A DNA stretch of 64,000 bases from contig CAISJD010000192.1 of NCBI GenBank assembly GCA_903885605.1, positions 1,063 through 65,062 of the forward strand. The letters run 5' to 3'. The notes beneath the pieces are model-generated. The model was not told where the DNA came from and did not search any database. It was given only the letters and a program-made list of their open reading frames with translations. Shown piece by piece: positions 31,194 through 56,128 of this stretch (position 1 is the stretch's first letter; every line of letters begins with the position of its first letter). The position numbers and the translations under genes were made by a program. The stretch comes from an uncultured Chthonomonas sp. Its GTDB lineage: Bacteria > Armatimonadota > Chthonomonadetes > Chthonomonadales > CAJBBX01.

Positions 31194-32540
31194 ATGCCCG
31201 TTCGCAGGCTCCGCCGCATCCTGCAGCCCTTCCAGCAGTTCGTCCGCATCGAGGCGTTCAGCGGCATCGTGCTGCTCGCGGCCACGGTGGCGGCGCTGGC
31301 CTGGGCGAACTCGCCCGCGGTGGGCCTCTACCATCGCCTGCTCGACCTGGAGATCGTCGCCGGCGCGGGCCCGCTCCGCCTCGCCAAGCCGCTCCACCTC
31401 TGGGTGAACGACGGCCTCATGGCCGTCTTCTTCTTCGTGGTGGGACTGGAGATCAAGCGCGAGGTCATGGGCGGCGAGCTGGCCACGCCCCGCAAGGCGG
31501 CGCTGCCGGTGGCGGCGGCGCTGGGCGGGATGGTGGTCCCGGCGCTGATCTACGTCTCATGCAACCTCGGCGTGCCGGAGGTGCGCGGCTGGGGCGTGCC
31601 CATGGCCACCGACATCGCCTTCGCGCTGGGCGTGCTGACCCTCGCCGGTCCGCGCGTCCCCTTCGCGCTGAAGGTCTTCCTGACCGCGCTGGCCATCGTC
31701 GACGACATCGGGGCCGTGGCCGTGATCGCCCTCTTCTACAGCCACGGCATCTCGCTGCCGGTGCTGCTGGCGGGCGTTGGGCTACTGGGCCTCTCGTTGG
31801 CCGCCAACCGGGCCGGGGTGCGGAGCCCATTGGCCTACACGCTCATCGGCATCGCGGCGTGGCTGGCCTTCCTGCAGTCGGGCGTCCACGCCACTGTGGC
31901 GGGCGTCCTGCTGGCCTTCACGGTGCCTGCCTCCACGCGCATCGACCGAGGGGACTTCCGCGACCGCGTCTCCGAGAGCCTGGCCGAACTGGGGCGCGGC
32001 GGCTCGACCGGCCCGGGGCTCGACACGCGGGAGCAGGCCGCCGTCTACGCCCTGGAGCGCGCCTGTGAGGAGGTCCAGACCCCCCTGCAGCGGATGCAGC
32101 ACGCGCTGCACCCCTGGGTCTCCTACGGCATCATGCCGCTCTTCGCGCTGGCCAACGCCGGGGTCTCCTTCGCGGGCCTTGACGCCTCGGGCCATGCGGG
32201 GGTGCCGCTGGGCGTCATCCTGGGCCTGCTGCTCGGGAAACCCATCGGCATCACGCTCTTCTCCTGGCTGGCGGCGCGGCTCCGGGTGGCCGAGCTACCC
32301 GCCGACGTGACGTGGATGCAGCTCCACGCCGCGGGCTGGCTGGGCGGTATCGGCTTCACCATGGCGGTCTTCATCGCGGGGCTCGCGTTCGCCGATGCGG
32401 CCCTGCTGGCCACGGCCAAGGTGGCGATCCTCTGCGCCTCGACCCTGGCGGGCGTCGTGGGCTTCACATTGGTCCGCCGGGCCGGCGGCTCCGGTACGAT
32501 CGCGGCCGACCCGGCAGAAGCCGATCCTACGGCACCGTAA
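31194..32540 (+). CDS. nhaA: Na+/H+ antiporter NhaA
   Basis: FVRIEAFSGIVLLAATVAALAWANS, LWVNDGLMAVFFFVVGLEIKRE and the MATDIAFALGVL..ALAIVDDIGAV signature. AGGAAGGA precedes ATG 31194. The track ORF extension from 30654 overlaps manA. Confidence 0.9.
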   Translation: MPVRRLRRILQPFQQFVRIEAFSGIVLLAATVAALAWANSPAVGLYHRLLDLEIVAGAGPLRLAKPLHLWVNDGLMAVFFFVVGLEIKREVMGGELATPRKAALPVAAALGGMVVPALIYVSCNLGVPEVRGWGVPMATDIAFALGVLTLAGPRVPFALKVFLTALAIVDDIGAVAVIALFYSHGISLPVLLAGVGLLGLSLAANRAGVRSPLAYTLIGIAAWLAFLQSGVHATVAGVLLAFTVPASTRIDRGDFRDRVSESLAELGRGGSTGPGLDTREQAAVYALERACEEVQTPLQRMQHALHPWVSYGIMPLFALANAGVSFAGLDASGHAGVPLGVILGLLLGKPIGITLFSWLAARLRVAELPADVTWMQLHAAGWLGGIGFTMAVFIAGLAFADAALLATAKVAILCASTLAGVVGFTLVRRAGGSGTIAADPAEADPTAP

Positions 32541-35127
32541 GCGTCGAGCTGAAGGAACTGGCGCCAGACTCGGTATCGCCACGGAACTCCGAGAGGATGG
32601 AGTGGGTGCCCGAAAGCGTCCCCGGCGGCACAGTGTAGAGGTATGAGGCGCAGCCTGACGCCTCCGTGACGGCCTGCCCCACCTCCACGCCGTCCACGCT
32701 GAAGGCGAGGGTCTTGCCCGCCAGCCAGGCGTAGTCCGGTAGCCGCCGCAGGTAGCCCCGCAGGTAGGTGCGCTGTCCCGGTCCGGCAGTGCGGTCGATG
32801 GACCAGAGCACGGTGGCACCCTTGGTCACGCGGAGAACGGCAGAACCGGAGCAACCCGCGAAGCCGCCGTCGCCGGCAAAGGTCACCGTCAGCGCATGGT
32901 CGCTGACGCCTTGGGTGGCTATGATCGGCAGCATCGCATGACCGACGGCGTCCGTGACGGCAGACCCGGCGGAGGTCCCGTCAATGGAGAACTCCAGCGA
33001 CTTACCCGGCAGCCAGGTCCGGTCCACTCCATTGCGGAGGTAGCCGCGCAGGTAGACCGGGTAGCCGAGCCGGGCCTCACGATCAGGCGCGTACATGATG
33101 GAGGGCAGGAGCCCCATGTTCAGCCGCATGATGAAGCCGTCGCCGTTGCCCTGGTTCAGGCTGCTGTAGCAGACCGCCGTCGTGGGGAAAGGCTTCGATG
33201 TGGTGCTTCCCGCCACGTAGAGCCGGCCGGCGACGCCCAGCGCCATGCTGTAAGCCGTGTCGTTGCCGGCGCCGCCGAGGTAGCTGGCAAAGGTGGCCCC
33301 GGCACCCACCGGGCTGTAGCGCATGAGGTAGGCATCACCGGTGTTGGCGACGTTGGTCGACTTCACGGCGTCCACGGACACGGGCATGTCAGCGGATGTG
33401 GTGGTGCCCAGCACGCAGACCATGCCCGTGCCGTCGATCTCCACGGCGACCGCCCGGTCGGTCTTGGCGCCGCCGACGATGGATCCAAAGAGAAGGGTCG
33501 AACCGTCGGCGCTGAAGAGGGAGGTGAACCCGTCGATACCGGCGCCCGGGTGCTGGTAGACGCCAGCCGTGGTCGGCGCCGACGCCAGCGTGGTGCTGCC
33601 GCAAGCCAGGAGCCGGCCCGCGCCGTCCACGGCAATGCCTGCGACCTCCTCGGACCCTTGGCCCCCGTAAAGCGATGCCCACTGCACCGAGCCGCCAGGG
33701 CTCATGCGCGCCACGAACCCCTCGAAGAATCCGCTCACGCCGACGTAGTCAGGCTGGAAACAGCCTACCGTGGTCGGGAAGTCATCCGAGTTGGTCCAGC
33801 CACCGAGGTATGGGTCGCCTCCCGGCCCAATGGTGATACAGGTGGCTGCACTGTTGAGTCGGCAGTTGAACTCGTGCCGCCATAGAACAGCGCTGCCGTC
33901 CGTGGCGAACTCCAGCACGTTGGCCTGCAACCGTACCCCTCCGTTCACGAGGTACTGGAAGCTGCCCGCGGCATAGAGGCGGCCGTCGGACGAGAGGGCC
34001 ACCCCGGCAATGGTGTCGGTGTAGGCGCCTCCCCATAGGGTGCAAAAGTCAAGAGCCGTGCCGTCGGCATTCAGCCGCGCCACGAAGCCGTCTGCATTGC
34101 CGGCCGCGGCCGTCTGGTAGGCGCCCGAGGTCGTCGGGAAGTCCCCGGAGAGCGTCTCGCCGCAGACGATGGCCCGACCTGAGCTGTCCAGCGCCAGACC
34201 ATAGGGCTCGTCGTCACTGGAGCCGCCTAGGTAAGTTGAGTAGACCAGCGCGTTGCCGGCGGCGTTGAGCTTGGTGACGGCGACGTTGTAGCCGGTCCCG
34301 GCCGTCGTATCGAAGGAGCCTGGGGTGGTCGGGTAGGTCGGCGAGTTGGTCCAGACCGCCACGACCATGGAGCCATCGGCGGCTACCTTGATGGCCTTGA
34401 CGACATCACGGGTCGGAGCCCCGATGAGGGTGGCGTACTCGACGACAGGGTCGATCACCAACGTCCGCGATGGGTCGTAGGCCGCCACACGGAAGGTCAC
34501 CCGAGCAGGAAGGCCTCGGCGGGCGGGCGTCAGCGCGTAGGACGCGGCCACGGTTTTGCGGTGGCCAGCCGCGATCTGGTAGGCCACCGGCGCCCGAAGC
34601 GTGATGACTCCGAGGCCCGTGCCGATCTCCAGGGCGCCGCCTCGCAGTCGCGCACCGTCCGCCCCTTCCAAGGCCAGCGAGATGCGTGACGGGTCGGCGC
34701 CCGGCCGCAGAACGAAGTCATGCTCGATCCCGCCGTTGGGTAGCCCGTAGTAGACCAGATCGGTGCGCGGGTAGACCTCTCTCGCGCGCACCGCACTGTA
34801 GGTGGGCAACCCCGTGCGCCACGCCCGCCGGTCGCGGCCCAGCAGGTAGCTGACCTTTCCCTCGGTGCGCTCTTGCCCGCGGACCTCAGCCCGGGCGTTG
34901 GCGCCCTGCAGGCGTATGCGGACGGCGGCGCCGGAGCCTCCGCGCGTAGCGGCCACCGCCAGGTGGTCGGAGCCGATGAAGAGCGTTGCCGAGCCTGCCC
35001 GAGCCAGGAACCGTGCCTGCGGGGCGGCTTGCCCGGCATTTGGCTCGAACGTGATCGGCGGCCCCGCGTTCGCACACATGGGGGCTAGAGCTAGCAACCA
35101 CGTCGAAGTGTAGAGCATCTGACGCAT
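32527..35127 (-). CDS. secreted SBBP beta-propeller repeat protein with two C-terminal Ig-like domains
   Basis: GGAGG before ATG 35127. Signal MRQMLYTSTWLLALAPMCANA. N-terminal FEPNAGQ...ARFLARAG domain. Repeated SBBP pattern (YSTYLGGSSDDEPYGLALDSSGRAIVCGETLSGDFPTT, and others). The C-terminal two copies of L.GYLRR.....WL.GK.L.FS.DG...G.AVT...G.A are homologous to the tail of the giant protein. Confidence 0.7.
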   Translation of the reverse strand: MRQMLYTSTWLLALAPMCANAGPPITFEPNAGQAAPQARFLARAGSATLFIGSDHLAVAATRGGSGAAVRIRLQGANARAEVRGQERTEGKVSYLLGRDRRAWRTGLPTYSAVRAREVYPRTDLVYYGLPNGGIEHDFVLRPGADPSRISLALEGADGARLRGGALEIGTGLGVITLRAPVAYQIAAGHRKTVAASYALTPARRGLPARVTFRVAAYDPSRTLVIDPVVEYATLIGAPTRDVVKAIKVAADGSMVVAVWTNSPTYPTTPGSFDTTAGTGYNVAVTKLNAAGNALVYSTYLGGSSDDEPYGLALDSSGRAIVCGETLSGDFPTTSGAYQTAAAGNADGFVARLNADGTALDFCTLWGGAYTDTIAGVALSSDGRLYAAGSFQYLVNGGVRLQANVLEFATDGSAVLWRHEFNCRLNSAATCITIGPGGDPYLGGWTNSDDFPTTVGCFQPDYVGVSGFFEGFVARMSPGGSVQWASLYGGQGSEEVAGIAVDGAGRLLACGSTTLASAPTTAGVYQHPGAGIDGFTSLFSADGSTLLFGSIVGGAKTDRAVAVEIDGTGMVCVLGTTTSADMPVSVDAVKSTNVANTGDAYLMRYSPVGAGATFASYLGGAGNDTAYSMALGVAGRLYVAGSTTSKPFPTTAVCYSSLNQGNGDGFIMRLNMGLLPSIMYAPDREARLGYPVYLRGYLRNGVDRTWLPGKSLEFSIDGTSAGSAVTDAVGHAMLPIIATQGVSDHALTVTFAGDGGFAGCSGSAVLRVTKGATVLWSIDRTAGPGQRTYLRGYLRRLPDYAWLAGKTLAFSVDGVEVGQAVTEASGCASYLYTVPPGTLSGTHSILSEFRGDTESGASSFSSTLTVP

Positions 35128-35320
35128 GGTGACCTCCATCAGACCAAAGGTCCGCGACGGCGATCCGTCGGGCACTGGAGTAGTAAGCAAACACCGCGCG
35201 GACTGTTCACAATGCCCTACCGCGGCGCCATGCCATGCTACGTGCAACCCCTCAATGGCGCAAGGTGGAGGATGGCCCATGGCTGGGCGGCCCCAGGTAC
35301 GCAGGAGCCAGGAGCCAGAC

Positions 35321-37279
35321 ATGGAATATGCAGTCGGCTCGCGCGTCTACAGAGCGGGAGGACGGTACAGCGTGACGGATGCGGAACTGGTCGGGCGGGC
35401 GCTGGCAGGTGAGGTGGACGCGTACAGCTTACTCGTTACTCGTCACCAGGCCGCGGTGGCCCGGGTATGCCGGGGCCTCTGCGGCTCGGACCCCGATGCC
35501 GATGAGCTGGCGCACGACGCGCTGGTCGATGGCTTCCTGAAGCTGCCGCACCTCCGCGCGCCGGAGCGGTTCGGGGCATGGATCCGGACCGTGGCGCTCA
35601 ACCGGTGCCGGCAGTGGCACCGCGAAAGGGCGAGGCTGACGCCGCTGACCGAGGAGGCCGCCGACGCCCTCGTGGCCCCGGCGGACGATCCATTGGACCA
35701 CACCGCCCTGGCACACGCGGTCTTCGCGCTGTCGCCCGCCCACCGGCTCGTCCTGATCCTCCACTACTGGGAGGGGCTCCCATACGCCGACATCGCCGCA
35801 TTCACGGCCCTGCCCATCGGCACGGTGATGAGCCGGCTCCATCGCGCACGAGCCAATGTGAGGAAGGCAATGGAAACAATGGACGCGAGCTTCACACCGA
35901 CCGCCACGCCGGACCTCCGGTGCGAGGTGGACGCTGAGATCCGGCTGATGCTCTCGATGGTGGAGAAGGAGCCGGCCCTGCGCGGCCGACTGGCTGTCCT
36001 GCTGGCCCGGTCTCCGAGCCGCTTCTCGGACCTGATCCGCGGGGCCGACGCGGCCGGGGCGCGGGATGTGGCGCTACTCCTGCCGAGGCTCGGCGCCGGG
36101 GCGGCGGACCGGCTGCTGGACTGGTCGACGAGCGCGGAGGACGCCCTGCGCCAGGGCTCACTGGCGGCGCTTCGGGCGGTGGCCTCGACCCCGGCGCAGG
36201 TGGCCGAGCGGTCGGGCACGGCGCGCGTGGCCTCGCGGGCGCTCTATCTGGTGGTGGAACGTATCCTCGTCGCGCAAGACGATGACCCCTCCCGACGCGC
36301 GGGGCTGTTGCTCGACCTCCTGGGCCAGGCGGGCAAGGACGACCGGGCCGCCCTGCTTCTCACCGGCGCGCTGGTGAGCCTGGGCGAGCCCGCGCTCGAC
36401 GCACTCGTCAGAGCTATGGCTCCGCTTCGCACCGCCAGGGAGCTGCACGGCTGCGGCGACACGCTCTACGCCGCCTGCCGGTTCGGGTCGCGGTTCGGCG
36501 CGCAACTGGCTCCGTCGCTGCATGGAGATGGGCCGCTGGCCGTGCCGGTGGGCGTTGCCGCGGCCGAGGGGCTGGGCCGGGCGCTGCGGATGTGGTCCGA
36601 CATCGGGAAGCCGGACGAAGCGGGACGCCGCGCCGACTGCCGCCACCGCCGGAAGTGGGCGCCCCCCGCCGAGGCCGACCGTTCGCCCGCGGCGCTTGCC
36701 GGGCTGGCCGATGCGTTGGCGGCGCACGCCGCTGGACCTGCGGGCGAGGACCGGCAACGGGCCATACGCGCGCTGGGCATGCTGCCGGTGACCGAGGGGC
36801 TCGACGCGCTTCTCGCCGCCACCCGTTCCGACTGCCCGCGCACGCGGCTGACCGCTATCCGCGCCCTGGGCGACCGAGCCGACGCAGCCGCGGAGCCGCG
36901 CCTGGCCGAGCTTGCGGAGGGCGCATCCGGCGACGAGCGGGCGGCGGCGCTTCAGGCGATGGGCGGGCTACGCAACCGCGGTGCGGCCGGGACGCCGGCG
37001 CCGGCTGTCGGGTTCCGCATGGCCGATCTGGTGCGCGACGGCGCCCAGCCCGCCGGCAACGTATCGGTGGAGGTGGCACTGGCGGCCATCGGCGAGGACC
37101 GGGAGTACGACGAGCCCGAGGTCACCCGCGTCATCGCCTCGGCCTGCTGGGACTACTCCACCGTGCGCCGGTACCTGATCGAGGAGGGGCTGATGCAGCG
37201 CACCCGCGGCCGTTACACGTTCACCGAGGCCGGCCGGATCGCATGGAGGGTGGAGCGCGCCATCGCTGCGGCGCCATAG
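35321..37279 (+). CDS. ECF-type sigma-70 factor fused to a long HEAT-repeat-like C-terminal extension
   Basis: AGGAG x2 before ATG 35321. Region 2 (DELAHDALVDGFLKL....FGAWIRTVALNRCRQWHRE) and region 4 (LSPAHRLVLILHYWEGLPYADIAAFTALPIGTVMSRLHRARANVRKAM). These are followed by ~460 aa in the same frame with HEAT-like repeats (AIRALGML...; RLTAIRALGDRADAAAEPRLAELA) and a wHTH-like end (YLIEEGLMQRTRGRYTFTEAG). No TM segment. Confidence 0.7.
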   Translation: MEYAVGSRVYRAGGRYSVTDAELVGRALAGEVDAYSLLVTRHQAAVARVCRGLCGSDPDADELAHDALVDGFLKLPHLRAPERFGAWIRTVALNRCRQWHRERARLTPLTEEAADALVAPADDPLDHTALAHAVFALSPAHRLVLILHYWEGLPYADIAAFTALPIGTVMSRLHRARANVRKAMETMDASFTPTATPDLRCEVDAEIRLMLSMVEKEPALRGRLAVLLARSPSRFSDLIRGADAAGARDVALLLPRLGAGAADRLLDWSTSAEDALRQGSLAALRAVASTPAQVAERSGTARVASRALYLVVERILVAQDDDPSRRAGLLLDLLGQAGKDDRAALLLTGALVSLGEPALDALVRAMAPLRTARELHGCGDTLYAACRFGSRFGAQLAPSLHGDGPLAVPVGVAAAEGLGRALRMWSDIGKPDEAGRRADCRHRRKWAPPAEADRSPAALAGLADALAAHAAGPAGEDRQRAIRALGMLPVTEGLDALLAATRSDCPRTRLTAIRALGDRADAAAEPRLAELAEGASGDERAAALQAMGGLRNRGAAGTPAPAVGFRMADLVRDGAQPAGNVSVEVALAAIGEDREYDEPEVTRVIASACWDYSTVRRYLIEEGLMQRTRGRYTFTEAGRIAWRVERAIAAAP

Positions 37280-37362
37280 GGTAACCTCCCGGCATGGGAT
37301 GGTCGGGGGCCTGCCGTTCGGGGCGAGGCCGAGGCCCGGCCCGTAACCGTGGAGGAGGGACG

Positions 37363-38391
37363 ATGCCGCAGGAGTTGAGGGTGGGCCTCATCGGCTGTGG
37401 GGCCATGGGGCAGGCGCACGCCGATATCTGGCTCCGGACGCCGGGCGCGCGCCTGGCGGCGGTCTTTGATACCGTCGCCGAGCGCGCCGGGGACGTGGCC
37501 GCACGATGCGGTGCGACACCGTTCGGCGACCTGGCGGCCATGCTCGCCTCGGGCCTCATTGACGCCGTCTCCATCGCGACGCCGTCCGGCCTCCATGCCG
37601 ACCAGGGGCTTGCCGCGGCCGAGGCAGGCCACCATGTGGTCTGCGAGAAACCCCTCGACCTGAGCATCGGAAAGGCCGACTGCCTCATCCATGCCTGTCG
37701 GAGCCGGGGATTGGCCCTGGCCTGCGTGCTCCAGCGCCGCACCTTCGCGGGAACACAGGCCGTGACGCAGGCGATCCACCGAGGGCGCATGGGCCGGCTG
37801 CTCTCGTGCAGCGCCTCCATAAAGTGGTGGCGCTCGCAGGAGTACTACGACGCCGCCGGCTGGCGCGGAACCTGGGCGCTGGACTGCGGCGTGCTGGCCA
37901 ACCAGGCGATCCATGCCATCGATCACCTCTGCTGGATGGCCGGTCCCGTGGCCGAGGTGGAGTACGCCTGCCTCGGCACCGTCGGCCATGCCATGGAGGC
38001 CGAGGACCACGCGCTGGCCGTCGTGCGCTTCGAGAGCGGCTGTCGCGGCGTCATCGAGGCCACCACCTGCTGCTCGCCCGCGCTCTGCTCACGTGTGGAG
38101 GTCTACGGCCAGCGGGGATCCGCCTCGTTCGACGACGCGCAGGTCGTCTCCTTCGGCATCGACGGCGCCGACGCAATCGCCGAACTGCCCACCGAGACCG
38201 CCAGCCTGGGCGGCCGGGCCGAGCCCATGGCGATCAATATGGCCGGGCACGAGGCCATCTTCGCCGACTTCGTGGCGGCGGTCCGCGACGGGCGTCCGCC
38301 CATGGTCACCGGCGAGGATGCCCGCGCGGCCGTCGATGCGCTGAACAAGATCTACCGCATGGCGGTCCCCGGCCAGAAGCTGGGCACGTGA
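37363..38391 (+). CDS. Gfo/Idh/MocA-family oxidoreductase (cytoplasmic)
   Basis: GGAGGAGGG before ATG 37363. LRVGLIGCGAMGQAHA Rossmann start and the HVVCEKP motif. Confidence 0.8.
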   Translation: MPQELRVGLIGCGAMGQAHADIWLRTPGARLAAVFDTVAERAGDVAARCGATPFGDLAAMLASGLIDAVSIATPSGLHADQGLAAAEAGHHVVCEKPLDLSIGKADCLIHACRSRGLALACVLQRRTFAGTQAVTQAIHRGRMGRLLSCSASIKWWRSQEYYDAAGWRGTWALDCGVLANQAIHAIDHLCWMAGPVAEVEYACLGTVGHAMEAEDHALAVVRFESGCRGVIEATTCCSPALCSRVEVYGQRGSASFDDAQVVSFGIDGADAIAELPTETASLGGRAEPMAINMAGHEAIFADFVAAVRDGRPPMVTGEDARAAVDALNKIYRMAVPGQKLGT

Positions 38392-38451
38392 CCCCGCCGG
38401 GCGGTATGCTACCTGCACCGCTCCACCACTGCAAGCTTCCGGAGGCCCGCC

Positions 38452-40062
38452 ATGCTCACGCCCGCCACGCCGCCTGTCGAAACGCCCCGCCGGCCGAACA
38501 TCGTGCTGATCATCACCGACGACCAGGGCTACGGCGACGCCGGCTGCTACGGCAACGACCGGGTTCGGACGCCCAACCTCGACCGCATGGCCGCCGAGGG
38601 CGCGCGGTTCAGCCGGTTCTACGTCTGCCCGGTCTGCTCACCCACGCGGGCGGGGGTGATGACCGGACGGTGGAACTACCGCACCGGCGTGGTGGACACC
38701 TTCCTGGGCCGCTCCATGATGCGCCCCACCGAGGTGACGCTGCCGGAGTTGCTCCGCAAGGCCGGCTACCGCACGGGCCTCTTCGGCAAGTGGCACCTGG
38801 GCGACAACGCACCCATGCGACCCATGGACAAGGGCTTCGACGAGGCGCTCTGGAACAAGGGCGGCGGCCTGACCCAGCCCGCGGACCCCGAGGGGAACAG
38901 CTACACGGACCCGGTCCTCTACCGCGGCGCGCGGGCCGAGCAGCAGAAGGGATACGTTACCGACGTCATCACCGATGCGGCCCTCTCCTTCATGAAGCGC
39001 AACCGCACACGGCCTTTCTTCCTCTACCACGCCACCGTGGCGCCGCATACGCCGCTGGAGGTCCCCGACGCCTGGGTCGAGCCCTACCGCAAGGCGGGGC
39101 TGGACGAGGAGACCGCCCGCGTCTACGCCATGGTGGAGAACATCGACACCAACGTGGGACGCCTGCTCGAAGGCATCAGGGAGATGGGCATCGACCGGGA
39201 GACGCTGGTGGTCTTCGTAGGCGACAACGGCCCGGCGCACACCCGGTTCAACGGCGGCCTGCGCGGCCTGAAGGGAAGCCCCTACGAGGGAGGCGTCCGG
39301 GTGCCCTGCGTGGTGAGGTGGCCCGGATCGGTGCCGCCGGCCGTCATCGACACCGCCGGAGCCAACGTGGACCTGCTGCCCACGCTCGTGCAGATGGCCG
39401 GAGCCACGCCGCCGGACGGGCTGCGCCTCGACGGCCGGAGCCTGGCTCCCCTGCTCCGAGGCGAGAAGCCGCCCTGGACCGAGCGAACCCTCTTCTACCA
39501 GTGGCACCGCGGCGACGAGCCACGCCGCGGCGAGAGCTACTGCGCCATCGGCAGCCGATACAAGCTCGTGAATGGGACCGAGCTATACGACCTGCAAGGC
39601 GACCCGGCCGAGGCGCACAACCTGGCGGCGGAGATGCCCGACAGGGCGGCCGACCTGCGGCGGCAGTACGACGCCTGGTTCGACGACGTCTCCTCGCAGG
39701 GCTACGAGCCGCCGCGCATCCTGATCGGCTCGGACCGCGAGCGCCTCTCGACGCTGACGCGCCAGGACTTCCGCGGCCCGACCGCCTCGTGGGCCGAGGG
39801 CGCCGTGGGCTACTGGGAGGTGGAGGCGGCCGCGCCGACGCGGGTGGACGTGCGGGTGGCAATCTGGCCGATCACGACGACTGGACGCGTCCACGTGCGC
39901 GTGGGCGGCGTGGAGCGGGAAGCGTGGGCACGCCCGGGCGCCAAGACCTGCACACTGCGGTGGATTGAGATGGTCGGCGGACCGGCGCGGCTGGAAGCCT
40001 GGTGCGAGGCCGGCGGCAAGACGCAGGGCGCGCGCTACCTGGTGGTGCAGCGATCCCAATAG
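38452..40062 (+). CDS. arylsulfatase (formylglycine-dependent type I sulfatase)
   Basis: GGAGG 6 nt before ATG 38452. PNIVLIITDDQGYGD and the C-x-P-x-R signature VCSPTRAGVMTGR, plus GLFGKWHLG. No obvious signal peptide. Confidence 0.85.
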   Translation: MLTPATPPVETPRRPNIVLIITDDQGYGDAGCYGNDRVRTPNLDRMAAEGARFSRFYVCPVCSPTRAGVMTGRWNYRTGVVDTFLGRSMMRPTEVTLPELLRKAGYRTGLFGKWHLGDNAPMRPMDKGFDEALWNKGGGLTQPADPEGNSYTDPVLYRGARAEQQKGYVTDVITDAALSFMKRNRTRPFFLYHATVAPHTPLEVPDAWVEPYRKAGLDEETARVYAMVENIDTNVGRLLEGIREMGIDRETLVVFVGDNGPAHTRFNGGLRGLKGSPYEGGVRVPCVVRWPGSVPPAVIDTAGANVDLLPTLVQMAGATPPDGLRLDGRSLAPLLRGEKPPWTERTLFYQWHRGDEPRRGESYCAIGSRYKLVNGTELYDLQGDPAEAHNLAAEMPDRAADLRRQYDAWFDDVSSQGYEPPRILIGSDRERLSTLTRQDFRGPTASWAEGAVGYWEVEAAAPTRVDVRVAIWPITTTGRVHVRVGGVEREAWARPGAKTCTLRWIEMVGGPARLEAWCEAGGKTQGARYLVVQRSQ

Positions 40063-50137: not shown

Positions 50138-53100
50138 TTACGGAACCACGTTGAACGCGGCGTTGGCCGAGGCGGACGAGTACCACGCGTCGCCCGCGAA
50201 GGCGGCGGTGGCCGTGTGGGCTCCCAGCGCCTCGCCGGCGGGCATGGCCCAGGTGGCGCTTGCCCAGCCGTCGGCGGCCACCGTGCCGCTCCCGACGCCC
50301 GTGCCGTTCACGCTGAAGGCGATGCTCTTGCCGGGCAGGATGACGTAGTCCGGCAGGCTGCGGACGTAGGCCTTCAGCAGGTGGTTGGTCCCCTTCTTGG
50401 CGGAGCGGACGTAGGGCCAGATGTAGATGTCGCCCTTGGTGACGGTGAGCTTGCCGTTGTTGGCCGAGGCCACGTAGCCGCCGTCGCCGGCCCACTCGCT
50501 GCGAACCGTGCGGATGCCCGCGCCAGAGCCCTCCGGCACCGTGTAGCCGAGCTGGGCGTAGCCCGCCGCGCGGGTCACGTCCGAGCCCAGCACGGAGCCG
50601 TCCACCTTGATCACCATGGTCTTGCCCCCCACCGGCGTGTTATTCAGCAGGTAGAGGTAGGCCTTGAGCACCGTGTACGTCTTGACCTTGGCCGTGCGGT
50701 CGACCACGTAGACCTTGGTGGCCAGGGTTTGGGCCGTCAGCTTGCCCGTGGTGACGCTGGGTCCATACTCCACGTCGCCATCGAACCGGGCCTGGATGGT
50801 CCGGCTGGCTGGCCCATCGCTGATCACCCAGGTCAGCGCGGCCTGGCCGTCGGCGTCCGTGACGGCCGAGCCCACGTCGACGCCCTCGACGCGGAACGCC
50901 ACCGTGCGGCCGCTGAGCCAGGTGTTGTCGGACAGGCGCTTCAGATACCCCTTCAGCGCGATGGAGGTGGTGATGACGCCGGTGCGGTCCGGCGCGTAGA
51001 TCGACGTTCGCGGCCGGTCTGACGCCACGAGCGCCGTGTTGTTGTCCTCGCGGCCCTCGGCAATGGCGTTGCCGGGGTCGGCGACCACGCGGATCTGGGC
51101 CACGTTGACGCCCGCCATGACGGGCACGTCGATCCGCTGGGTGATGAAGCCCGCCAGGCTCGGCACGGTGGTCGAACCGAGTTGCACTACGCCGGGCGTT
51201 CCCGGCACGCCGGTGTAGGCCGCGACCACCAGGTCCGAGAGCGTGTCGAAACTCCGGTTGGTCACCGTGACGTGGGCCGTGCCGGTTCCGTCCCAGTTCC
51301 ACTCGAAGGTGGCGTCAGATGGGTCCACTGCCACGTCGGGCTGGGTCGATACCTCGCCCCAGTAGATCGTGCCCGCCGTGCCGTCGCACCCGTCGGCGCC
51401 GATGCCGCCCGCAGCGGTGACCGTGCCACCCGGGAAGCCCGTTCCGGCGACGCACCGCACGGCTATCCGACCGCCGCCGCCGCCGCCCGCCCGGACTTCG
51501 GGGTGCTCGTCGTGATGTGCAGCGCCTCCGCGAGCTCCGATGAGGCCGGAGCCGGAGAGCGTGGTGCAGGCGATCCGCACACTGCCGCCGGAGCCCGCAC
51601 CCGCATTGGCGTTCGGGTTGCCGTCGGAGATGATGGAGCCGTTCAGCAGGAGCGTGCCCCGGACCGTGACCGCGACGATGCCGCCTCCCGATGAGCCGGG
51701 AATGGCGTCGCCGATGTTGGAGCCGCCGCCGCTGCCCCAGTCGGCGGGCCAGGTGGGCGCGCCGTAGGGGGCGTAGGGGTTCCCGCCGCCGATCCCTCCG
51801 TAGGTTGCGCCGTCACCCGCGCTGTAGTCCCCATGCCCCGGGCCGCTGCGGTTGCCGTTGCCCATGCCCGTGGCGTCGATGGATGCGCCGGCCGCCACCG
51901 TGCAGTCCTGGCCGATCCAGATCTCCACGCCGCGGTTGTCCATCTGCTGGCACCGCAGCGTCGAGCCCGACTCCATCAAGAGGCTCCGCAGGGACATGCC
52001 GGCCACCGATGTGGAGAGCGTCATCGTGGCGTTGCGTATGCGCAGGTCTACGTCCGGCATCTCCAGCACGGGCTGCAGGACCGGACCGATCAGGACCCCG
52101 TTGTCGAATGCCAGCGTCGCAGTGCTGTCGCCCTGCCTCCGGCGGTAGATCGAGCCGGGCCCGCCGTCCATGGAGGAGCCGTTGAGCGCGCCTGCACCGC
52201 CCCGGCACTCTACCGTGCCGGCGAATGCGTCAGCCCCGTAGCTCAGGGCGATGCGCCCGCCGCCGCCGCCGCCTGCCATCCATCCCGCAGGCAGTGCGGA
52301 GATATCCGGCGAGCCGCCGTTGGCCGTGACGACGCCGGACCCCATGAGGGTGCCGACGCTCAGGAGTACCGAGCCGCCCGCTCCGGCGCCCACGTTGGCG
52401 GGGCCGGCTCCGTCGGCGCGGATGGCGCCGTCCAGGAGTAGCGTGCCCGGCACGGTGAGGCGTATGCGCCCTCCGCCTGCGCCGCCGGGATAGGCGTCGC
52501 CTACGTTGGATCCGCCGCCGCTACCCAGGTCTGAGGGCTCGACGATTGAGGCGTAGGCCCACTGGCCGTTCCCCGCGCCGGAGCCGCCGTGGGTGGCTCC
52601 GTTGCCGGCGCTGTATGTGCCCCCGCCAGGGCCGGAGCGGCTGGGGTAGCCAAGGCCGGTCACGTCGATGGAGCCGCCGGACTGGACGGTCAGGTTCTGT
52701 CCGACGGTCGCGCGGAGGCCGAACGAGCCGCTGGGGAGACAGGTGAGCGTTGTGTTCGGACCGAGCGTCAGGCTGCGGGCGTTGAGCCCGTCGGCCTCGT
52801 CGGAAAGGACCATGACCGCGCCGCGCACGACGAGGTCGGCCTCGGGCCGCGCGAAGGCCACCTGGTAGATCGCGCCGATGGCGCCGCCGTTGTCAAAGGT
52901 CAGGTTCGCCGCGGTCGCTCCGGTCTGCAGCGTATAGATCGAGCCGGGGCCGCCGTCGGCCACCGAGGTGTCGAAGAAGCCGCGGCCGCCCTGGGCGGAT
53001 ACCATGCCCGTGAACGCGGTCGATGCGTAATAGAGCGCCACGCGCCCGCCGCCGCCGCCGCCCGCCTGCCAGCCCGCGGGCAGGGAGGTCACGTCCGGCG

Positions 53101-56100
53101 TGCCGCCGTCGGCGGAGATGACGCCGTTGCCGCTGAGCGATCCGACGGTGGCGTAGATGGAGCCGCCCGAGCCGCCGCCTGTGTTGGGCGCACTGCCTCC
53201 CTCGGCCAGGATGGCGCCGCTGTTGGCCAGCGCGCCGTGTACGATCAGGCGTATCTTCCCGCCGCCCGCGCCGCCGGGGTAGGCGTCGCCTACGTTCGAG
53301 CCGCCGCCGCTACCGAAGTCGGTGGGCTCGACGATGGAGCCGTACGCCCATCGGCCGTTGCCGGCTCCCGAGCCGCCGTAGGTGGCGCCGTTGCCTCCGC
53401 TGTAGTCGCCGCCGCCCGGGCCCTGCCGGCTGGGGTAGCCCGCGCCGGTTACGTCGAGGGAGGCCGATGCTGCGACCGTCAGGTCTTGCCAGACCGTCAG
53501 CCGCAGGCCGGGGTCGTTGGCGCCGAGGCATGTGATCACGCTACCCTCGCCGACGGCGAGATTGCGGGCGCCCATGCCGGCGGGATCGGGCGATAGTGTC
53601 ATCACGGCGCCCAGCACCGTCACGTCCGTGTTCGGCATGTCGAAGACCGGCTGCATCACGTTGCCGACCTGCCCGTTGTTATCGTACAGCAGAGTGGATT
53701 GGGTCTCCCCGTTGCGCTGCATGAAGATCGTGCCCGGTCCGCCGTACAGGGGCGTGGTGTAGATTCTCCCCGCGCCGCCGCGAGCGTCCATGCGGCCCGC
53801 GAAGGTGTTGGCGTCGTAGTGCGCCGCGATCCGTCCGCCGCCTCCGCCGCCTGCCGGCCAGCCTTCGGGCAGGGCGGAGACGTCAGGCGACCCGCCCACG
53901 GCCTCGATGAGGCCCGAGCCGGCCAGGGAGCCGACCTTCAGGTGGATAGAGCCGCCGGAGCCGCCGCCTGCGTTAGCCGGGCCGATCCCATCCGATAGGA
54001 CCGAGCCTTCCACGGTGAGGGCGCCGGCGACGGTCAGGTCCACCAGCGCGCCGCCGGAGCCGCCCGGCCATGCGTCGCCGACATTGGGTCCGCCGCCGCT
54101 GCCCAGGTCGGTCGGCGCCTCGATGCTGCCGTAGACCCAACGGCCGTTGCTGGCTCCCGATCCGCCGTAGGTCGCGCCGTTGCCGGCGCTGTAGTCGCCG
54201 CTACCCGATCCCTGGCGGCTGGGATAGCCCAGTCCGGAGCCGTCCAGTGAGCCGCCGGGTCCCACCGTCAGGTCCTGCGCGGTGGTGATCTTAATGCCGT
54301 CGGCCGTGGCCTGCTGGCACAGGATCACAGAGCCGGCATCAACGGTCAAGTTCCGCACGCTCAGGCCGGCCGCATCGCTGGAGAGCGTCATCACGGCGCC
54401 CTTGATCGTCATGTCCAGATCGGTCATGGCGAAGACGGGCTGCAGCACCGGACCGGTCAGCGCGCCGTTGTCGAAGAGCAGTGTGGCGAAGGCCGCGCCG
54501 GACTGCCGCATATAGAGCGTGCCCGGCCCGCCGACCGCTGCCGTGCTGTTGACGCGCCCATGCCCGCCGCAAGCCTGGTAGGCGCCGGTGTAGTTGAGGG
54601 TCTGGTACTCGATGCCGATCCGCCCGCCGCCGCCGCCGCCGGCCAGCCAGCCGTCGGGCAACGCCGAGGTATCCGGCGAGCCGCCGACGGCCGAGATCAG
54701 GCCTGAGCCCGCCAGCGTGCCCACGGCGAACCGCAGGCTGCCGCCGGAGCCGCCGCCGGCGTTGGCCGGGCCGATGCCGTCGGCGCGGACCGAGCCGTCC
54801 ACGGTGCAGACGCCGCCCACCGTGATGCCGGCGATGCCGCCGCCCGGGCCGCCCGGCCATGCGTCGCCCACGTTGGGTCCGCCGCCGCTACCGTAGTCGA
54901 CCGGAGCAGTGAACGAGCCATAGGCCCAGCGCCCGTTGCCGTAGCCCGAGCCGCCATAGGTCGCTCCGTTACCGGCGCTGTAGTCGCCGCCGCCGGTTCC
55001 CTGCCGGTTCGGATGCCCCGTACCGTTGACATCGATGGAGCAGCCCGCATCCACCGTCAGGTCTCCGGAGACCTGCAGCGGAAGGCCGAACCCGTCCACT
55101 GCGGGACAGGTTGCCTCGGCGGCGGTCATGAGCCGCATGTCGGCCACCTGGATGGGTCCGCTGCTGCAGCTGAAGCAGATACGCGCCATGGCGAGCGTCA
55201 GGTCGGCGTCGGGAAGGGCCACGGCCGCGTGCTGGGTATAGCCGAAAGCCGGGCCGTTGTTGAACTCGACTGTCTCGTGCGACGTGCCCAGCCCGTGGCA
55301 GTAGACGGTGCCGGGGCCGCCGTTGCATGCAGCCGTCCCGTAGACGCCCAGGCCGCCGCGGGCCTGCATCTGGCCGCTGAACGTGCTCGTGGTCCAGGTC
55401 ACGGAGACCCGGCCGCCGCCGCCGCCGCCCGCCCGCCAGCCGGGGGTCATCCCGGAGACGTCCGGCGTTCCGCCGTTGGCTACGAAGGTTCCATCCCCCG
55501 CCAGGGTCGTCGCGCTCAGGCGGATCGAGCCGCCCGCGCCGCCGCCCGCGTTGGCCGGGCCGATGCCGTCGGAGCGGATGTTGCCCTCCACCCGGCAGAG
55601 GCCGCCCACTGTCAGGTCGATAAGCCCGCCTCCCGTGCCTCCCGGCCAGGCGTCTCCGAGGTTCGAGCCGCCGCCCGAGCCGTAGTCGGCGGGCGCGGTG
55701 ACGGAGTCATTGGCCCACCTCCCGCTGTCGCCGCCTGTGCCGCCGTGCGTGGCTCCGTTACCGGCGCTATAGTCACCGTTGCCGGGGCCGTTTCGGCTCG
55801 GGTACCCATGGCCCGAGGCGTCGATCCGGCTGCCGCTCTCGACCGTGAGGTCGCCGGAGACGGCAATCTGCAGCGCAGGTCCGGCCGGTGCCACGACGCC
55901 GCTGTCGCGGACGAGCAGGCTGGCGTAGGATGCCCCTCCTCCTCCGCAGTCGATGGTCAGCGTACAGCCGGTGACGATGATCGGCTCGCCGGTGTACGAG
56001 CCGGCCGGTATCGTGGTGTCGCTGGTGAACTCCACGGCCTGCGCGATGCCCGGGGCCAGGCCCACCAGGCAACAGAGCGCGGCAACGGCGGCCCGTAGCC

Positions 56101-56128
56101 GCCCGATCTTCGAGATGACATGCAGCAT
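50138..56128 (-). CDS. giant secreted protein (1996 aa): six 263-aa glycine-rich repeat modules + CARDB domain + three Ig-like domains
   Basis: GGGAGAG 7 nt before ATG 56128. Signal MLHVISKIGRLRAAVAALCCLVGLAPGIAQA. Six modules each contain DLTV..G.SID..G.GYPSR.GPG.GDYSAGNGATYGG...GSGGG.NVGDA.PGG.GGG...GPANAGGG.GGS....GGGGGGR. CARDB-like segment aa ~1596-1702 (...VVADPGNAIAEGREDNNTA). Three Ig-like repeats follow to the C-terminus. The track ORF (to 57292) continues upstream only as R/P/H-rich sequence overlapping the next gene. Confidence 0.75.
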   Translation of the reverse strand: MLHVISKIGRLRAAVAALCCLVGLAPGIAQAVEFTSDTTIPAGSYTGEPIIVTGCTLTIDCGGGGASYASLLVRDSGVVAPAGPALQIAVSGDLTVESGSRIDASGHGYPSRNGPGNGDYSAGNGATHGGTGGDSGRWANDSVTAPADYGSGGGSNLGDAWPGGTGGGLIDLTVGGLCRVEGNIRSDGIGPANAGGGAGGSIRLSATTLAGDGTFVANGGTPDVSGMTPGWRAGGGGGGRVSVTWTTSTFSGQMQARGGLGVYGTAACNGGPGTVYCHGLGTSHETVEFNNGPAFGYTQHAAVALPDADLTLAMARICFSCSSGPIQVADMRLMTAAEATCPAVDGFGLPLQVSGDLTVDAGCSIDVNGTGHPNRQGTGGGDYSAGNGATYGGSGYGNGRWAYGSFTAPVDYGSGGGPNVGDAWPGGPGGGIAGITVGGVCTVDGSVRADGIGPANAGGGSGGSLRFAVGTLAGSGLISAVGGSPDTSALPDGWLAGGGGGGRIGIEYQTLNYTGAYQACGGHGRVNSTAAVGGPGTLYMRQSGAAFATLLFDNGALTGPVLQPVFAMTDLDMTIKGAVMTLSSDAAGLSVRNLTVDAGSVILCQQATADGIKITTAQDLTVGPGGSLDGSGLGYPSRQGSGSGDYSAGNGATYGGSGASNGRWVYGSIEAPTDLGSGGGPNVGDAWPGGSGGALVDLTVAGALTVEGSVLSDGIGPANAGGGSGGSIHLKVGSLAGSGLIEAVGGSPDVSALPEGWPAGGGGGGRIAAHYDANTFAGRMDARGGAGRIYTTPLYGGPGTIFMQRNGETQSTLLYDNNGQVGNVMQPVFDMPNTDVTVLGAVMTLSPDPAGMGARNLAVGEGSVITCLGANDPGLRLTVWQDLTVAASASLDVTGAGYPSRQGPGGGDYSGGNGATYGGSGAGNGRWAYGSIVEPTDFGSGGGSNVGDAYPGGAGGGKIRLIVHGALANSGAILAEGGSAPNTGGGSGGSIYATVGSLSGNGVISADGGTPDVTSLPAGWQAGGGGGGRVALYYASTAFTGMVSAQGGRGFFDTSVADGGPGSIYTLQTGATAANLTFDNGGAIGAIYQVAFARPEADLVVRGAVMVLSDEADGLNARSLTLGPNTTLTCLPSGSFGLRATVGQNLTVQSGGSIDVTGLGYPSRSGPGGGTYSAGNGATHGGSGAGNGQWAYASIVEPSDLGSGGGSNVGDAYPGGAGGGRIRLTVPGTLLLDGAIRADGAGPANVGAGAGGSVLLSVGTLMGSGVVTANGGSPDISALPAGWMAGGGGGGRIALSYGADAFAGTVECRGGAGALNGSSMDGGPGSIYRRRQGDSTATLAFDNGVLIGPVLQPVLEMPDVDLRIRNATMTLSTSVAGMSLRSLLMESGSTLRCQQMDNRGVEIWIGQDCTVAAGASIDATGMGNGNRSGPGHGDYSAGDGATYGGIGGGNPYAPYGAPTWPADWGSGGGSNIGDAIPGSSGGGIVAVTVRGTLLLNGSIISDGNPNANAGAGSGGSVRIACTTLSGSGLIGARGGAAHHDEHPEVRAGGGGGGRIAVRCVAGTGFPGGTVTAAGGIGADGCDGTAGTIYWGEVSTQPDVAVDPSDATFEWNWDGTGTAHVTVTNRSFDTLSDLVVAAYTGVPGTPGVVQLGSTTVPSLAGFITQRIDVPVMAGVNVAQIRVVADPGNAIAEGREDNNTALVASDRPRTSIYAPDRTGVITTSIALKGYLKRLSDNTWLSGRTVAFRVEGVDVGSAVTDADGQAALTWVISDGPASRTIQARFDGDVEYGPSVTTGKLTAQTLATKVYVVDRTAKVKTYTVLKAYLYLLNNTPVGGKTMVIKVDGSVLGSDVTRAAGYAQLGYTVPEGSGAGIRTVRSEWAGDGGYVASANNGKLTVTKGDIYIWPYVRSAKKGTNHLLKAYVRSLPDYVILPGKSIAFSVNGTGVGSGTVAADGWASATWAMPAGEALGAHTATAAFAGDAWYSSASANAAFNVVP

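Follow-up and report, generated by a model that had tools for sequence, protein, structure and literature searches.

An ECF sigma factor fused to a HEAT-repeat solenoid and a DUF2087 winged helix: an apparently undescribed bacterial family with a conserved promoter motif and a putative anti-sigma module in cis

A stretch of 64,000 nucleotides from an uncultured Chthonomonas sp. (GenBank assembly GCA_903885605.1, contig CAISJD010000192.1; called the window in the following, with a G+C content of about 70%) encodes an extracytoplasmic function (ECF) sigma factor that continues into a helical solenoid with HEAT repeats and a terminal DUF2087 winged helix. ECF sigma factors constitute one of the major signalling systems of bacteria, and the extension-bearing groups ECF41, ECF42, ECF44 and ECF56 showed that a sigma factor can carry its own regulator. 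The sigma-solenoid fusion of the window defines a conserved and apparently undescribed family, judged from sequence comparisons that reach across about ten, mostly uncultured, phyla. The reading we favour, with a probability of roughly 0.6, is that of an autoregulated ECF sigma factor in which the attached solenoid and winged helix take the place of a separate anti-sigma factor.

What kind of sigma factor is encoded here? Inspection of the open reading frame (ORF) found a single uninterrupted frame that reaches its stop at position 37279, and the protein matches four Pfam families, Sigma70_r2, Sigma70_r4_2, HEAT_2 and DUF2087, all four above their curated cut-offs (Table 1; residues are numbered throughout from the ATG at 35321 used in an earlier note on this DNA, that is, in a version of 652 residues). 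For DUF2087 (PF09860) the score is 42.9 bits against a cut-off of 22.4. The sigma part consists of Pfam regions 2 and 4 only, without region 1 or 3, as in ECF (group 4) sigma factors, it scores 58.8 bits with the NCBIfam model TIGR02937 for sigma70-ECF proteins (cut-off 42.9), and its nearest sequences in the PDB are AlgU, RpoE, SigE and SigW (E 5e-14 to 5e-11). With the NCBIfam subfamily and equivalog models the protein stays below threshold: the best of them, TIGR02983, gives 91.2 bits against a cut-off of 141.55, and the remaining listed subfamily, equivalog and hypothetical-equivalog models are all well under their cut-offs. Between region 4 and the HEAT repeats lies an all-helical region of about 270 residues, which opens with the best-conserved helix of the extension (EVDAEI..LL...ERLSV.L..SPER) and for which residues 190-460 gave neither a Pfam match nor a PDB sequence match. 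A search of PDB sequences with a profile of the extension returned solely HEAT proteins of the PBS type (alphaRep, MTH187 and bilin-lyase HEAT proteins) and nothing for the DUF2087 part. On these matches the gene encodes a bona fide ECF (group 4) sigma core to which a module of some 450 residues is permanently joined. The earlier note had described just such an arrangement, regions 2 and 4 running in one frame into a long HEAT-like extension with a winged-helix-like end and no transmembrane segment, and ORF inspection and Pfam bear out the frame and the domains, while the winged helix is corroborated by the DUF2087 match together with a predicted MarR-like fold. A transmembrane segment was likewise not detected, as the Kyte-Doolittle mean over 19 residues peaks at 1.6, in a buried helix of sigma4. 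Three cysteines are invariant or nearly so in the family: C50 in sigma2 (codon 35468-35470), C386 in an ALCR.GTRF motif in the middle of the solenoid (36476-36478) and C609 in the winged helix (37145-37147); these could make up a redox or metal site.

The fusion is found far beyond the window. The identical 652-residue protein is present on eight contigs, the closest relatives come from uncultured Armatimonadota metagenome-assembled genomes (MAGs), a relative of about 85% identity is full length and syntenic, and a relative of only 34% identity (P0005, 690 residues) aligns over 97% of the query. When the extension alone (residues 190-652) was searched against 1.84 billion representative proteins, 244 representative clusters were found, the majority of them 690-730 residues long with a match that begins at residues 175-195, so that an ECF core precedes the extension in these proteins as well. 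Full-length members align end to end and comprise at least 62 clusters of 650-730 residues with 26-86% identity, and Sigma70_r2, Sigma70_r4_2, HEAT_2 and DUF2087 occur together in every one of the 62 members scanned. In addition, GTDB genomes were scanned for the winged-helix signature with a degenerate DNA pattern; this yielded 24 loci, 23 of which have an ORF that matches the family hidden Markov model (HMM), with full-length coverage in 13. The taxa include Armatimonadota (Capsulimonas, Chthonomonas), Hydrogenedentota, Latescibacterota, Phycisphaerae, Brocadiaceae, Gemmatimonadota, Myxococcota and others. Conservation within the extension peaks twice, in the helix directly after sigma4 (A205, E206, I207, L210, R223, L224 and P232, invariant or nearly so) and in the winged helix (D611, R616, R617, R627, G638, W642, R643 and E645), where D611, R616, R617, R627 and G638 are invariant in the alignment of 62 members.

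Such a long ORF could in principle be an artefact in which a frameshift or misassembly joined an ordinary ECF gene and an independent gene downstream of it, and in two relatives the gene does deviate from the fused form: in locus L012 (protein P0003) it is split into ORFs of 437 and 231 residues, and P0004 ends in a low-complexity tail. This explanation is hardly credible against an identical protein on eight contigs, against full-length fusions in at least 62 clusters of 26-86% identity from many phyla, and against a structure prediction that is confident over the junction region. Split versions are exceptional and most simply explained as assembly errors. The earlier note had named a frameshift-split gene as a finding that would overturn its reading, and the family-wide conservation rules this artefact out. 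The split orthologue (L012:4350-6336, minus strand, from the Armatimonadota MAG JAPLCQ010000081, 84% identical) is probably an assembly frameshift, and its 437-residue piece has been deposited under the plain name 'RNA polymerase sigma factor'; for the truncated P0004, too, an assembly error is the best explanation. A different situation is seen in a Verrucomicrobiota MAG, where an ORF of 155 residues (L013:2963-3430, plus strand) carries the family's DUF2087 winged-helix signature in its last 70 or so residues and is flanked by two other long ECF sigma genes (L013:178-2892 and L013:3459-5708, both on the minus strand), of which one encodes 904 residues with a 3-keto-disaccharide-hydrolase domain and the other 749 residues. 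The small ORF might be the remains of a gene, or a DUF2087 protein that stands alone and partners ECF sigma factors.

Moreover, the members of the family share a promoter-like element. Alignment of the regions upstream of family genes from different phyla revealed the motif tGGAATA-N14/15-GC(A/G)TC, which is present at 16 of 17 distinct loci and in most of them ends 17-66 nt 5' of the start codon as aligned to the family HMM. In its strict form the pattern was matched in 12 distinct loci as well as in the window, with one match per locus. Within the 64 kb of the window the site upstream of the sigma gene is the sole exact match to GGAATA-N13-16-GCRTC (0.11 expected by chance per 64 kb), and with a position weight matrix (PWM) of the family promoters it scores 27.2 bits, as compared to 13.8 bits for the next best site and maxima of 10.6-16 bits in shuffled sequence. 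The spacer varies between the window and the related loci L001 and L012, in contrast to the conserved -35 and -10 blocks. Beyond these two blocks the promoter alignment contained no further conserved element. The combination of a GGAAT-type -35 with a CGTC/CATC-type -10 we take to be ECF-like, judged from promoters of the SigR/SigH type. ECF sigma factors typically show positive autoregulation, and the motif has what is expected of an autoregulated ECF gene, a bipartite element with an AAC/AAT-containing -35 and a CGT/GTC-type -10 located 5' of the sigma gene. We infer that the sigma factor would transcribe its own gene from this conserved motif, with a transcription start predicted near 35354, some 7 nt downstream of the -10 GCGTC. 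In the promoters of L006, L010, L021 and L001 the -35 element extends into a near-palindrome, GGAATATCC or GGAATATTCC, which could be due to chance or could be recognised by a dimeric or a second DNA-binding element, the winged helix for example.

The motif also bears on where the protein begins. In the earlier note the gene started at ATG 35321 and was separated by 193 bp from its divergent neighbour. This ATG sits within the -35 element (CATGGAATA). Furthermore, the ratio of synonymous to non-synonymous changes over codons 1-17 counted from this ATG is 1:3 and 2:5 in the comparisons to L001 and L012, whereas it is 22:12 and 21:13 over codons 18-110. A Shine-Dalgarno-like GGGAGGA lies 9 nt before GTG 35372, and P0004 starts at the equivalent VTD..., where the alignment of the family HMM and consensus starts as well. 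Because the motif overlaps the ATG, and because of the codon-change ratios, the GGGAGGA sequence and the start of P0004 and of the family consensus, the start was moved to GTG 35372, which is probably the true one, with the segment from ATG 35321 presumably being non-coding. The protein is thereby revised to 635 residues and the divergent gap to 244 bp.

How could such a sigma factor be kept in check? A partner gene for this task was not found. In the window the neighbours of the sigma gene encode NhaA, a GFO/IDH/MocA oxidoreductase, a sulfatase and a propeller protein, and none of them is an anti-sigma factor. At the other family loci neighbours were called as ORFs filtered by G+C content at third codon positions (GC3) and scanned against Pfam: across 20 loci no neighbour was conserved in sequence, and among 60 neighbour ORFs no Pfam family occurred in more than two, with no anti-sigma family, DUF7948, SBBP or Big_3_5 among them. 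The statement of the earlier note that no anti-sigma gene is adjacent thus extends from the window to 20 loci of the family. A small downstream ORF of 215-250 residues, seen at several loci, was considered as a conserved partner and rejected, as the products are not related to one another (YdjM-like, methyltransferase-like, TetR-like and others).

A full-length structure was predicted with AlphaFold2 from the alignment of 62 sequences and compared to the PDB by Foldseek. The model has a mean predicted local distance difference test (pLDDT) of 88.8 and a predicted template modelling score (pTM) of 0.88, and the value of pTM for a multi-domain protein of 652 residues implies that the geometry between the domains is confidently fixed in the prediction. 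The earlier note had proposed such a model as a way to see whether the extension docks onto regions 2 and 4, and what is predicted is one compact body. The extension is all-helical up to about residue 555, resembles armadillo and HEAT solenoids, and is followed by a domain of the order H-H-H-beta-beta-H. When modelled separately, the last 87 residues reached a pLDDT of 95.1, and their best Foldseek matches are the winged helices of SarZ, MarR, Sso10a and PadR (template modelling score on the query, TMq, 0.55-0.61; root mean square deviation, rmsd, about 3 Å). For the sigma part the anti-sigma-bound SigW/RsiW (5wuq) and RpoE/NepR (5uxx) gave scores on the target (TMt) of 0.65 and 0.58 with rmsd values of about 6 and 7 Å, whereas several ECF sigma factors bound to RNA polymerase gave 0.38-0.45 with 22-27 Å. 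The predicted arrangement of sigma2 and sigma4 therefore fits these two anti-sigma-bound structures better than the polymerase-bound ones.

The mode of action that we favour is the following. The sigma factor would drive its own gene from the tGGAATA-N14/15-GC(A/G)TC promoter. In the resting state the solenoid and the winged helix would pack against sigma2 and sigma4, acting as an anti-sigma factor in cis, and would keep the two sigma domains compact and incompetent for polymerase binding, as in complexes of sigma and anti-sigma factors. A cytoplasmic signal received by the solenoid or the winged helix, be it a ligand, a partner protein or a redox change at the conserved cysteines, would then free the core for RNA polymerase. 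The divergent propeller gene would be a lineage-specific neighbour that stands outside the system. That the extension may be a regulatory, anti-sigma-like module was suggested in the earlier note, and this suggestion is plausible and indirectly supported by the co-conservation of core and extension in 62 of 62 members, by the lack of a partner gene and by the compact model.

Several points weigh against this mode of action. Autoregulation is read from the position and conservation of the motif, and docking of the extension onto sigma2 and sigma4 is read from a predicted model. Two further anti-sigma-bound complexes, those with RseA (sigmaE/RseA, 1or7) and MucA (AlgU/MucA), are resembled weakly (TMt 0.45-0.48), so that the label of an anti-sigma-bound conformation is valid for some complexes only. 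Known anti-sigma Pfam families of the zf-HC2 or RskA type are not among the matches of the protein up to an E value of 0.1. In addition, the extensions of ECF41 and ECF42 are also needed for activity, according to literature cited in PMC7826278, and a purely inhibitory role is for that reason not assured here.

Alternatively, the extension might be mainly a positive module, required for activity rather than inhibitory by analogy to the tetratricopeptide repeat (TPR) extension of ECF42, in that the DUF2087 winged helix binds DNA or RNA in the vicinity of target promoters or a co-factor is recruited by the solenoid. The winged helix would suit such a role. Within the extension it is the part that is conserved best (D611, R616, R617, R627, G638, W642 and R643), it contains an invariant TRR motif in its recognition helix, and is predicted to adopt a MarR-like DNA-binding fold; moreover, DUF2087 has been proposed to bind nucleic acids and frequently occurs in fusion with DNA-binding domains (PMC7113386), and the near-palindromic -35 elements of several family promoters would offer a site. 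However, outside of the -35 and -10 blocks the promoter alignment contains no extra conserved element, and the compact model, with its anti-sigma-like packing of sigma2 and sigma4, reads more easily as an off state. We consider a mainly positive role rather unlikely, and inhibitory and positive roles of the extension can coexist. A more far-reaching reading, which we put forward tentatively and regard as doubtful, would make the family a new ECF group, a sigma factor with its own sensor and a third head that reads nucleic acid: the HEAT solenoid would clamp sigma2 and sigma4 until a cytoplasmic cue arrives (a ligand, or a redox or metal event at C50, C386 and C609), whereupon the winged helix would either free the core or bind DNA or RNA beside the GGAATA(TCC) -35 element. 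If true, this would amount to a device for signal transduction and promoter recognition in one protein, distributed over about ten mostly uncultured phyla.

To return to the autoregulated sigma factor with an inhibitor in cis, does it also act on genes other than its own? On the same strand, after about 80 nt and without a detected terminator in between, come the oxidoreductase and sulfatase genes, which may also be transcribed by the sigma factor. A scan of positions 32300-38600 for sigma-70 promoters and terminators gave nothing above the level of shuffled sequence. On the other side, the earlier note had regarded the sigma gene and the gene for a secreted propeller protein as a divergent pair, and had raised the possibility that the sigma factor governs a set of surface proteins with a common immunoglobulin (Ig)-like tail, which would serve as a module for anchoring or display and recurs in a giant protein encoded elsewhere in the window. 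The two genes are indeed adjacent and divergent, an arrangement that is kept in relatives of about 85% identity; the tail domains are truly shared, with 35-42% identity, and no other protein of the window than these two secreted ones has them. Synteny at 85% identity is little informative, however, since conservation of the whole region is expected anyway among the relatives to which the pairing is limited, and more distant family members have unrelated neighbours in which DUF7948, SBBP and Big_3_5 do not recur. Furthermore, the window contains the family motif a single time, at the sigma gene, and lacks it 5' of the propeller and giant genes, the best other PWM site of the window being at shuffle level. 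The divergent intergenic region carries the motif on its plus strand, and no sigma-family motif on its minus strand. Neither the 244 nt preceding the propeller gene nor the 350 nt preceding the start of the giant gene at ATG 56128 contained an ECF-like site. The common -35/-10 pair that the earlier note had thought worth looking for in these upstream regions did not emerge: all that they have in common is a single 10-mer and a single 9-mer, differently spaced, which is consistent with chance at 70% G+C. A functional pair with the propeller gene and a sigma-controlled set of Ig-tailed surface proteins are very unlikely on these grounds, and the link of the sigma factor to its neighbouring surface protein looks coincidental. 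On present evidence, to annotate the propeller or the giant protein as members of its regulon is not warranted.

Within the divergent intergenic region a conserved block at 35230-35275 (CCATGCTA..GCAACCCCT..TGGCGCAAGGTGGAGG) is common to the window, L001 and L012. Located between the start of the propeller gene and the sigma promoter, it may be the promoter or leader of the propeller gene. A sigma-54 site in this block (TGCCATGCTA..GTGCAAC) was rejected by inspection, as the -24 element lacks its GG. At its other end the propeller gene (minus strand, ending at 32527) meets the ORF containing nhaA (plus strand, ending at 32540), and the two 3' ends overlap convergently by 14 nt (32527-32540).

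The shared tail itself belongs to a generic type of domain. The propeller protein is, as had been proposed, a secreted SBBP protein, with DUF7948 and SBBP matches and an N-terminus that by inspection looks like a signal peptide (MRQMLYTSTWLLALAPMCANA). Its two tail domains of about 95 residues and the three of the giant protein match each other in BLASTP at E 1e-33, so that the earlier observation of a tail common to both holds, and an HMM of the five copies found matches in these two proteins only when run against the six-frame translation of the window. Big_3_5 (PF16640) is the best Pfam match for all five copies and the sole match for three of them. Against its cut-off of 35.5 bits the last copy of the giant protein scores 38.9 and the propeller copies 26.9 and 28.5, and one copy in five passes alone. 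A database search with a profile of the tail returned 11 short Big_3_5 fragments, all of them carrying PF16640. Sorting-signal families (T9SS CTD, PEP-CTERM, LPXTG) are not among the NCBIfam matches of the propeller protein, and inspection found no hydrophobic or charged sorting tail in either protein, both of which end in ...TVP or ...VVP. By sequence the tail is best read as a generic, divergent Big_3_5 Ig-like domain, an ordinary feature of secreted proteins, and its proposed role in anchoring or display is left without a sorting signal to support it. Compared to other SBBP surface proteins and Big_3_5 domains the propeller and the tail are usual apart from the sequence divergence of the Ig copies. 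As for the giant protein, its real start is ATG 56128, followed by the signal peptide MLHVISKIGRLRAAVAALCCLVGLAPGIAQA, which gives about 1996 residues and not 2384; six Gly-rich repeats of about 260 residues (GNGATYGGSG...GGGxNVGDAWPGG...) and a CARDB-like stretch precede the three Big_3_5 domains. At the DNA level Tandem Repeats Finder, run with a minimum score of 100 and a longest period of 500, detected no tandem repeat in its gene.

Table 1. Positions in the window of the sigma gene, its promoter and domains, and of the neighbouring and giant surface proteins
Feature	Position	Strand	Details
ECF-type promoter-like motif	35323..35347	+	-35 GGAATA 35323-35328, 14-nt spacer, -10 GCGTC 35343-35347
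Shine-Dalgarno-like GGGAGGA	35356..35362	+	9 nt before GTG 35372; conserved in L001 and L012
ECF sigma gene with fused C-terminal extension	35372..37279	+	Revised GTG start (probable); 635 residues plus stop
Sigma region 2	35432..35635	+	Residues 38-105; Pfam Sigma70_r2, E 2e-11
Sigma region 4	35708..35866	+	Residues 130-182; Sigma70_r4_2, E 2.2e-12 (residues 130-178); Sigma70_r4, E 4.2e-9
Family-specific all-helical region	35912..36700	+	Residues 198-460; helices predicted by AlphaFold2, pLDDT mostly >90
HEAT repeats (PBS-lyase type)	36713..36961	+	Residues 465-547; Pfam HEAT_2, E 4.2e-9
DUF2087 winged-helix domain	37067..37270	+	Residues 583-650; Pfam DUF2087 at 588-632, E 5.5e-11
Divergent intergenic region	35128..35371	.	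Propeller start to revised sigma start; aligned with L001 and L012
Secreted DUF7948/SBBP beta-propeller protein	32527..35127	-	866 residues; Pfam DUF7948, E 6.5e-51; SBBP, E 1.6e-20
Two C-terminal Big_3_5-like Ig domains of the propeller protein	32530-33099	-	Big_3_5, E 7e-6 and 2e-6
Three C-terminal Big_3_5 Ig-like domains of the giant secreted protein	50141..51013	-	Gene 50138-56128; Pfam Big_3_5, 42.3 bits for the giant protein as a whole vs cut-off 35.5

How does the family compare to known sigma factors with a built-in regulator? ECF sigma factors with fused C-terminal regulators are known from ECF41, ECF42, ECF56, ECF238 and others, 19 groups as described in PMC7826278, and their extensions are thought to touch the core and to set its activity (PMC7826278; PMC3426412). 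Like ECF41 (SnoaL-like extension, as in SigJ of M. tuberculosis), ECF42 (TPR), ECF56 with SigG1 (SnoaL_2) and ECF238 with CorE2 (Cys-rich), the sigma factor of the window consists of a core followed by a group-specific extension and has no anti-sigma gene nearby; the extension is conserved together with the core, and the predicted fold is compact. An extension of this kind is expected to exceed 50 residues, to be conserved and to co-occur with the core, and HEAT_2 and DUF2087 follow the core in 62 of 62 members. Unlike in these groups, the extension is far larger, with about 450 residues, and forms an alpha-solenoid with HEAT repeats of the PBS type and a DUF2087 winged helix. SnoaL, TPR or Cys-rich motifs as in ECF41, ECF42 and ECF238 were not found by Pfam in the protein, and SigG1 (7qh5) matches its model weakly (TMt 0.36). 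Among the extension types named in the main text of PMC7826278, which are SnoaL, TPR, Cys-rich, DUF1835 and transmembrane helices, HEAT and DUF2087 are not listed, and full-text literature searches found no paper that links ECF sigma factors with HEAT, DUF2087 or armadillo. The family is apparently outside the known groups, as judged by NCBIfam scores, Pfam and published descriptions, although it may conceivably belong to some obscure group that exists already. It adds a much larger and structurally different type of extension to the ECF sigma factors with fused regulators, and its clean motif, common to several phyla, makes the hypotheses directly testable and would offer a compact orthogonal pair of sigma factor and promoter for synthetic biology.

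The predicted arrangement of sigma2 and sigma4 is like that in complexes that contain class I anti-sigma factors (SigW-RsiW, RpoE-NepR and sigmaE-RseA, the likeness being the closer for the first two, as given above), but the inhibitor would be present in cis here and is not the four-helix anti-sigma domain of these complexes. DUF2087 has been associated with putative transcription regulators (PMC7113386), and the family would provide DUF2087 with a first functional context. In its C-terminal domain the sigma factor is like BtmL of the bottromycin cluster, the DUF2087 match being above the cut-off; unlike BtmL, a stand-alone protein of 20 kDa with an ArsR-like N-terminus, DUF2087 stands here at the end of a sigma factor, behind HEAT repeats.

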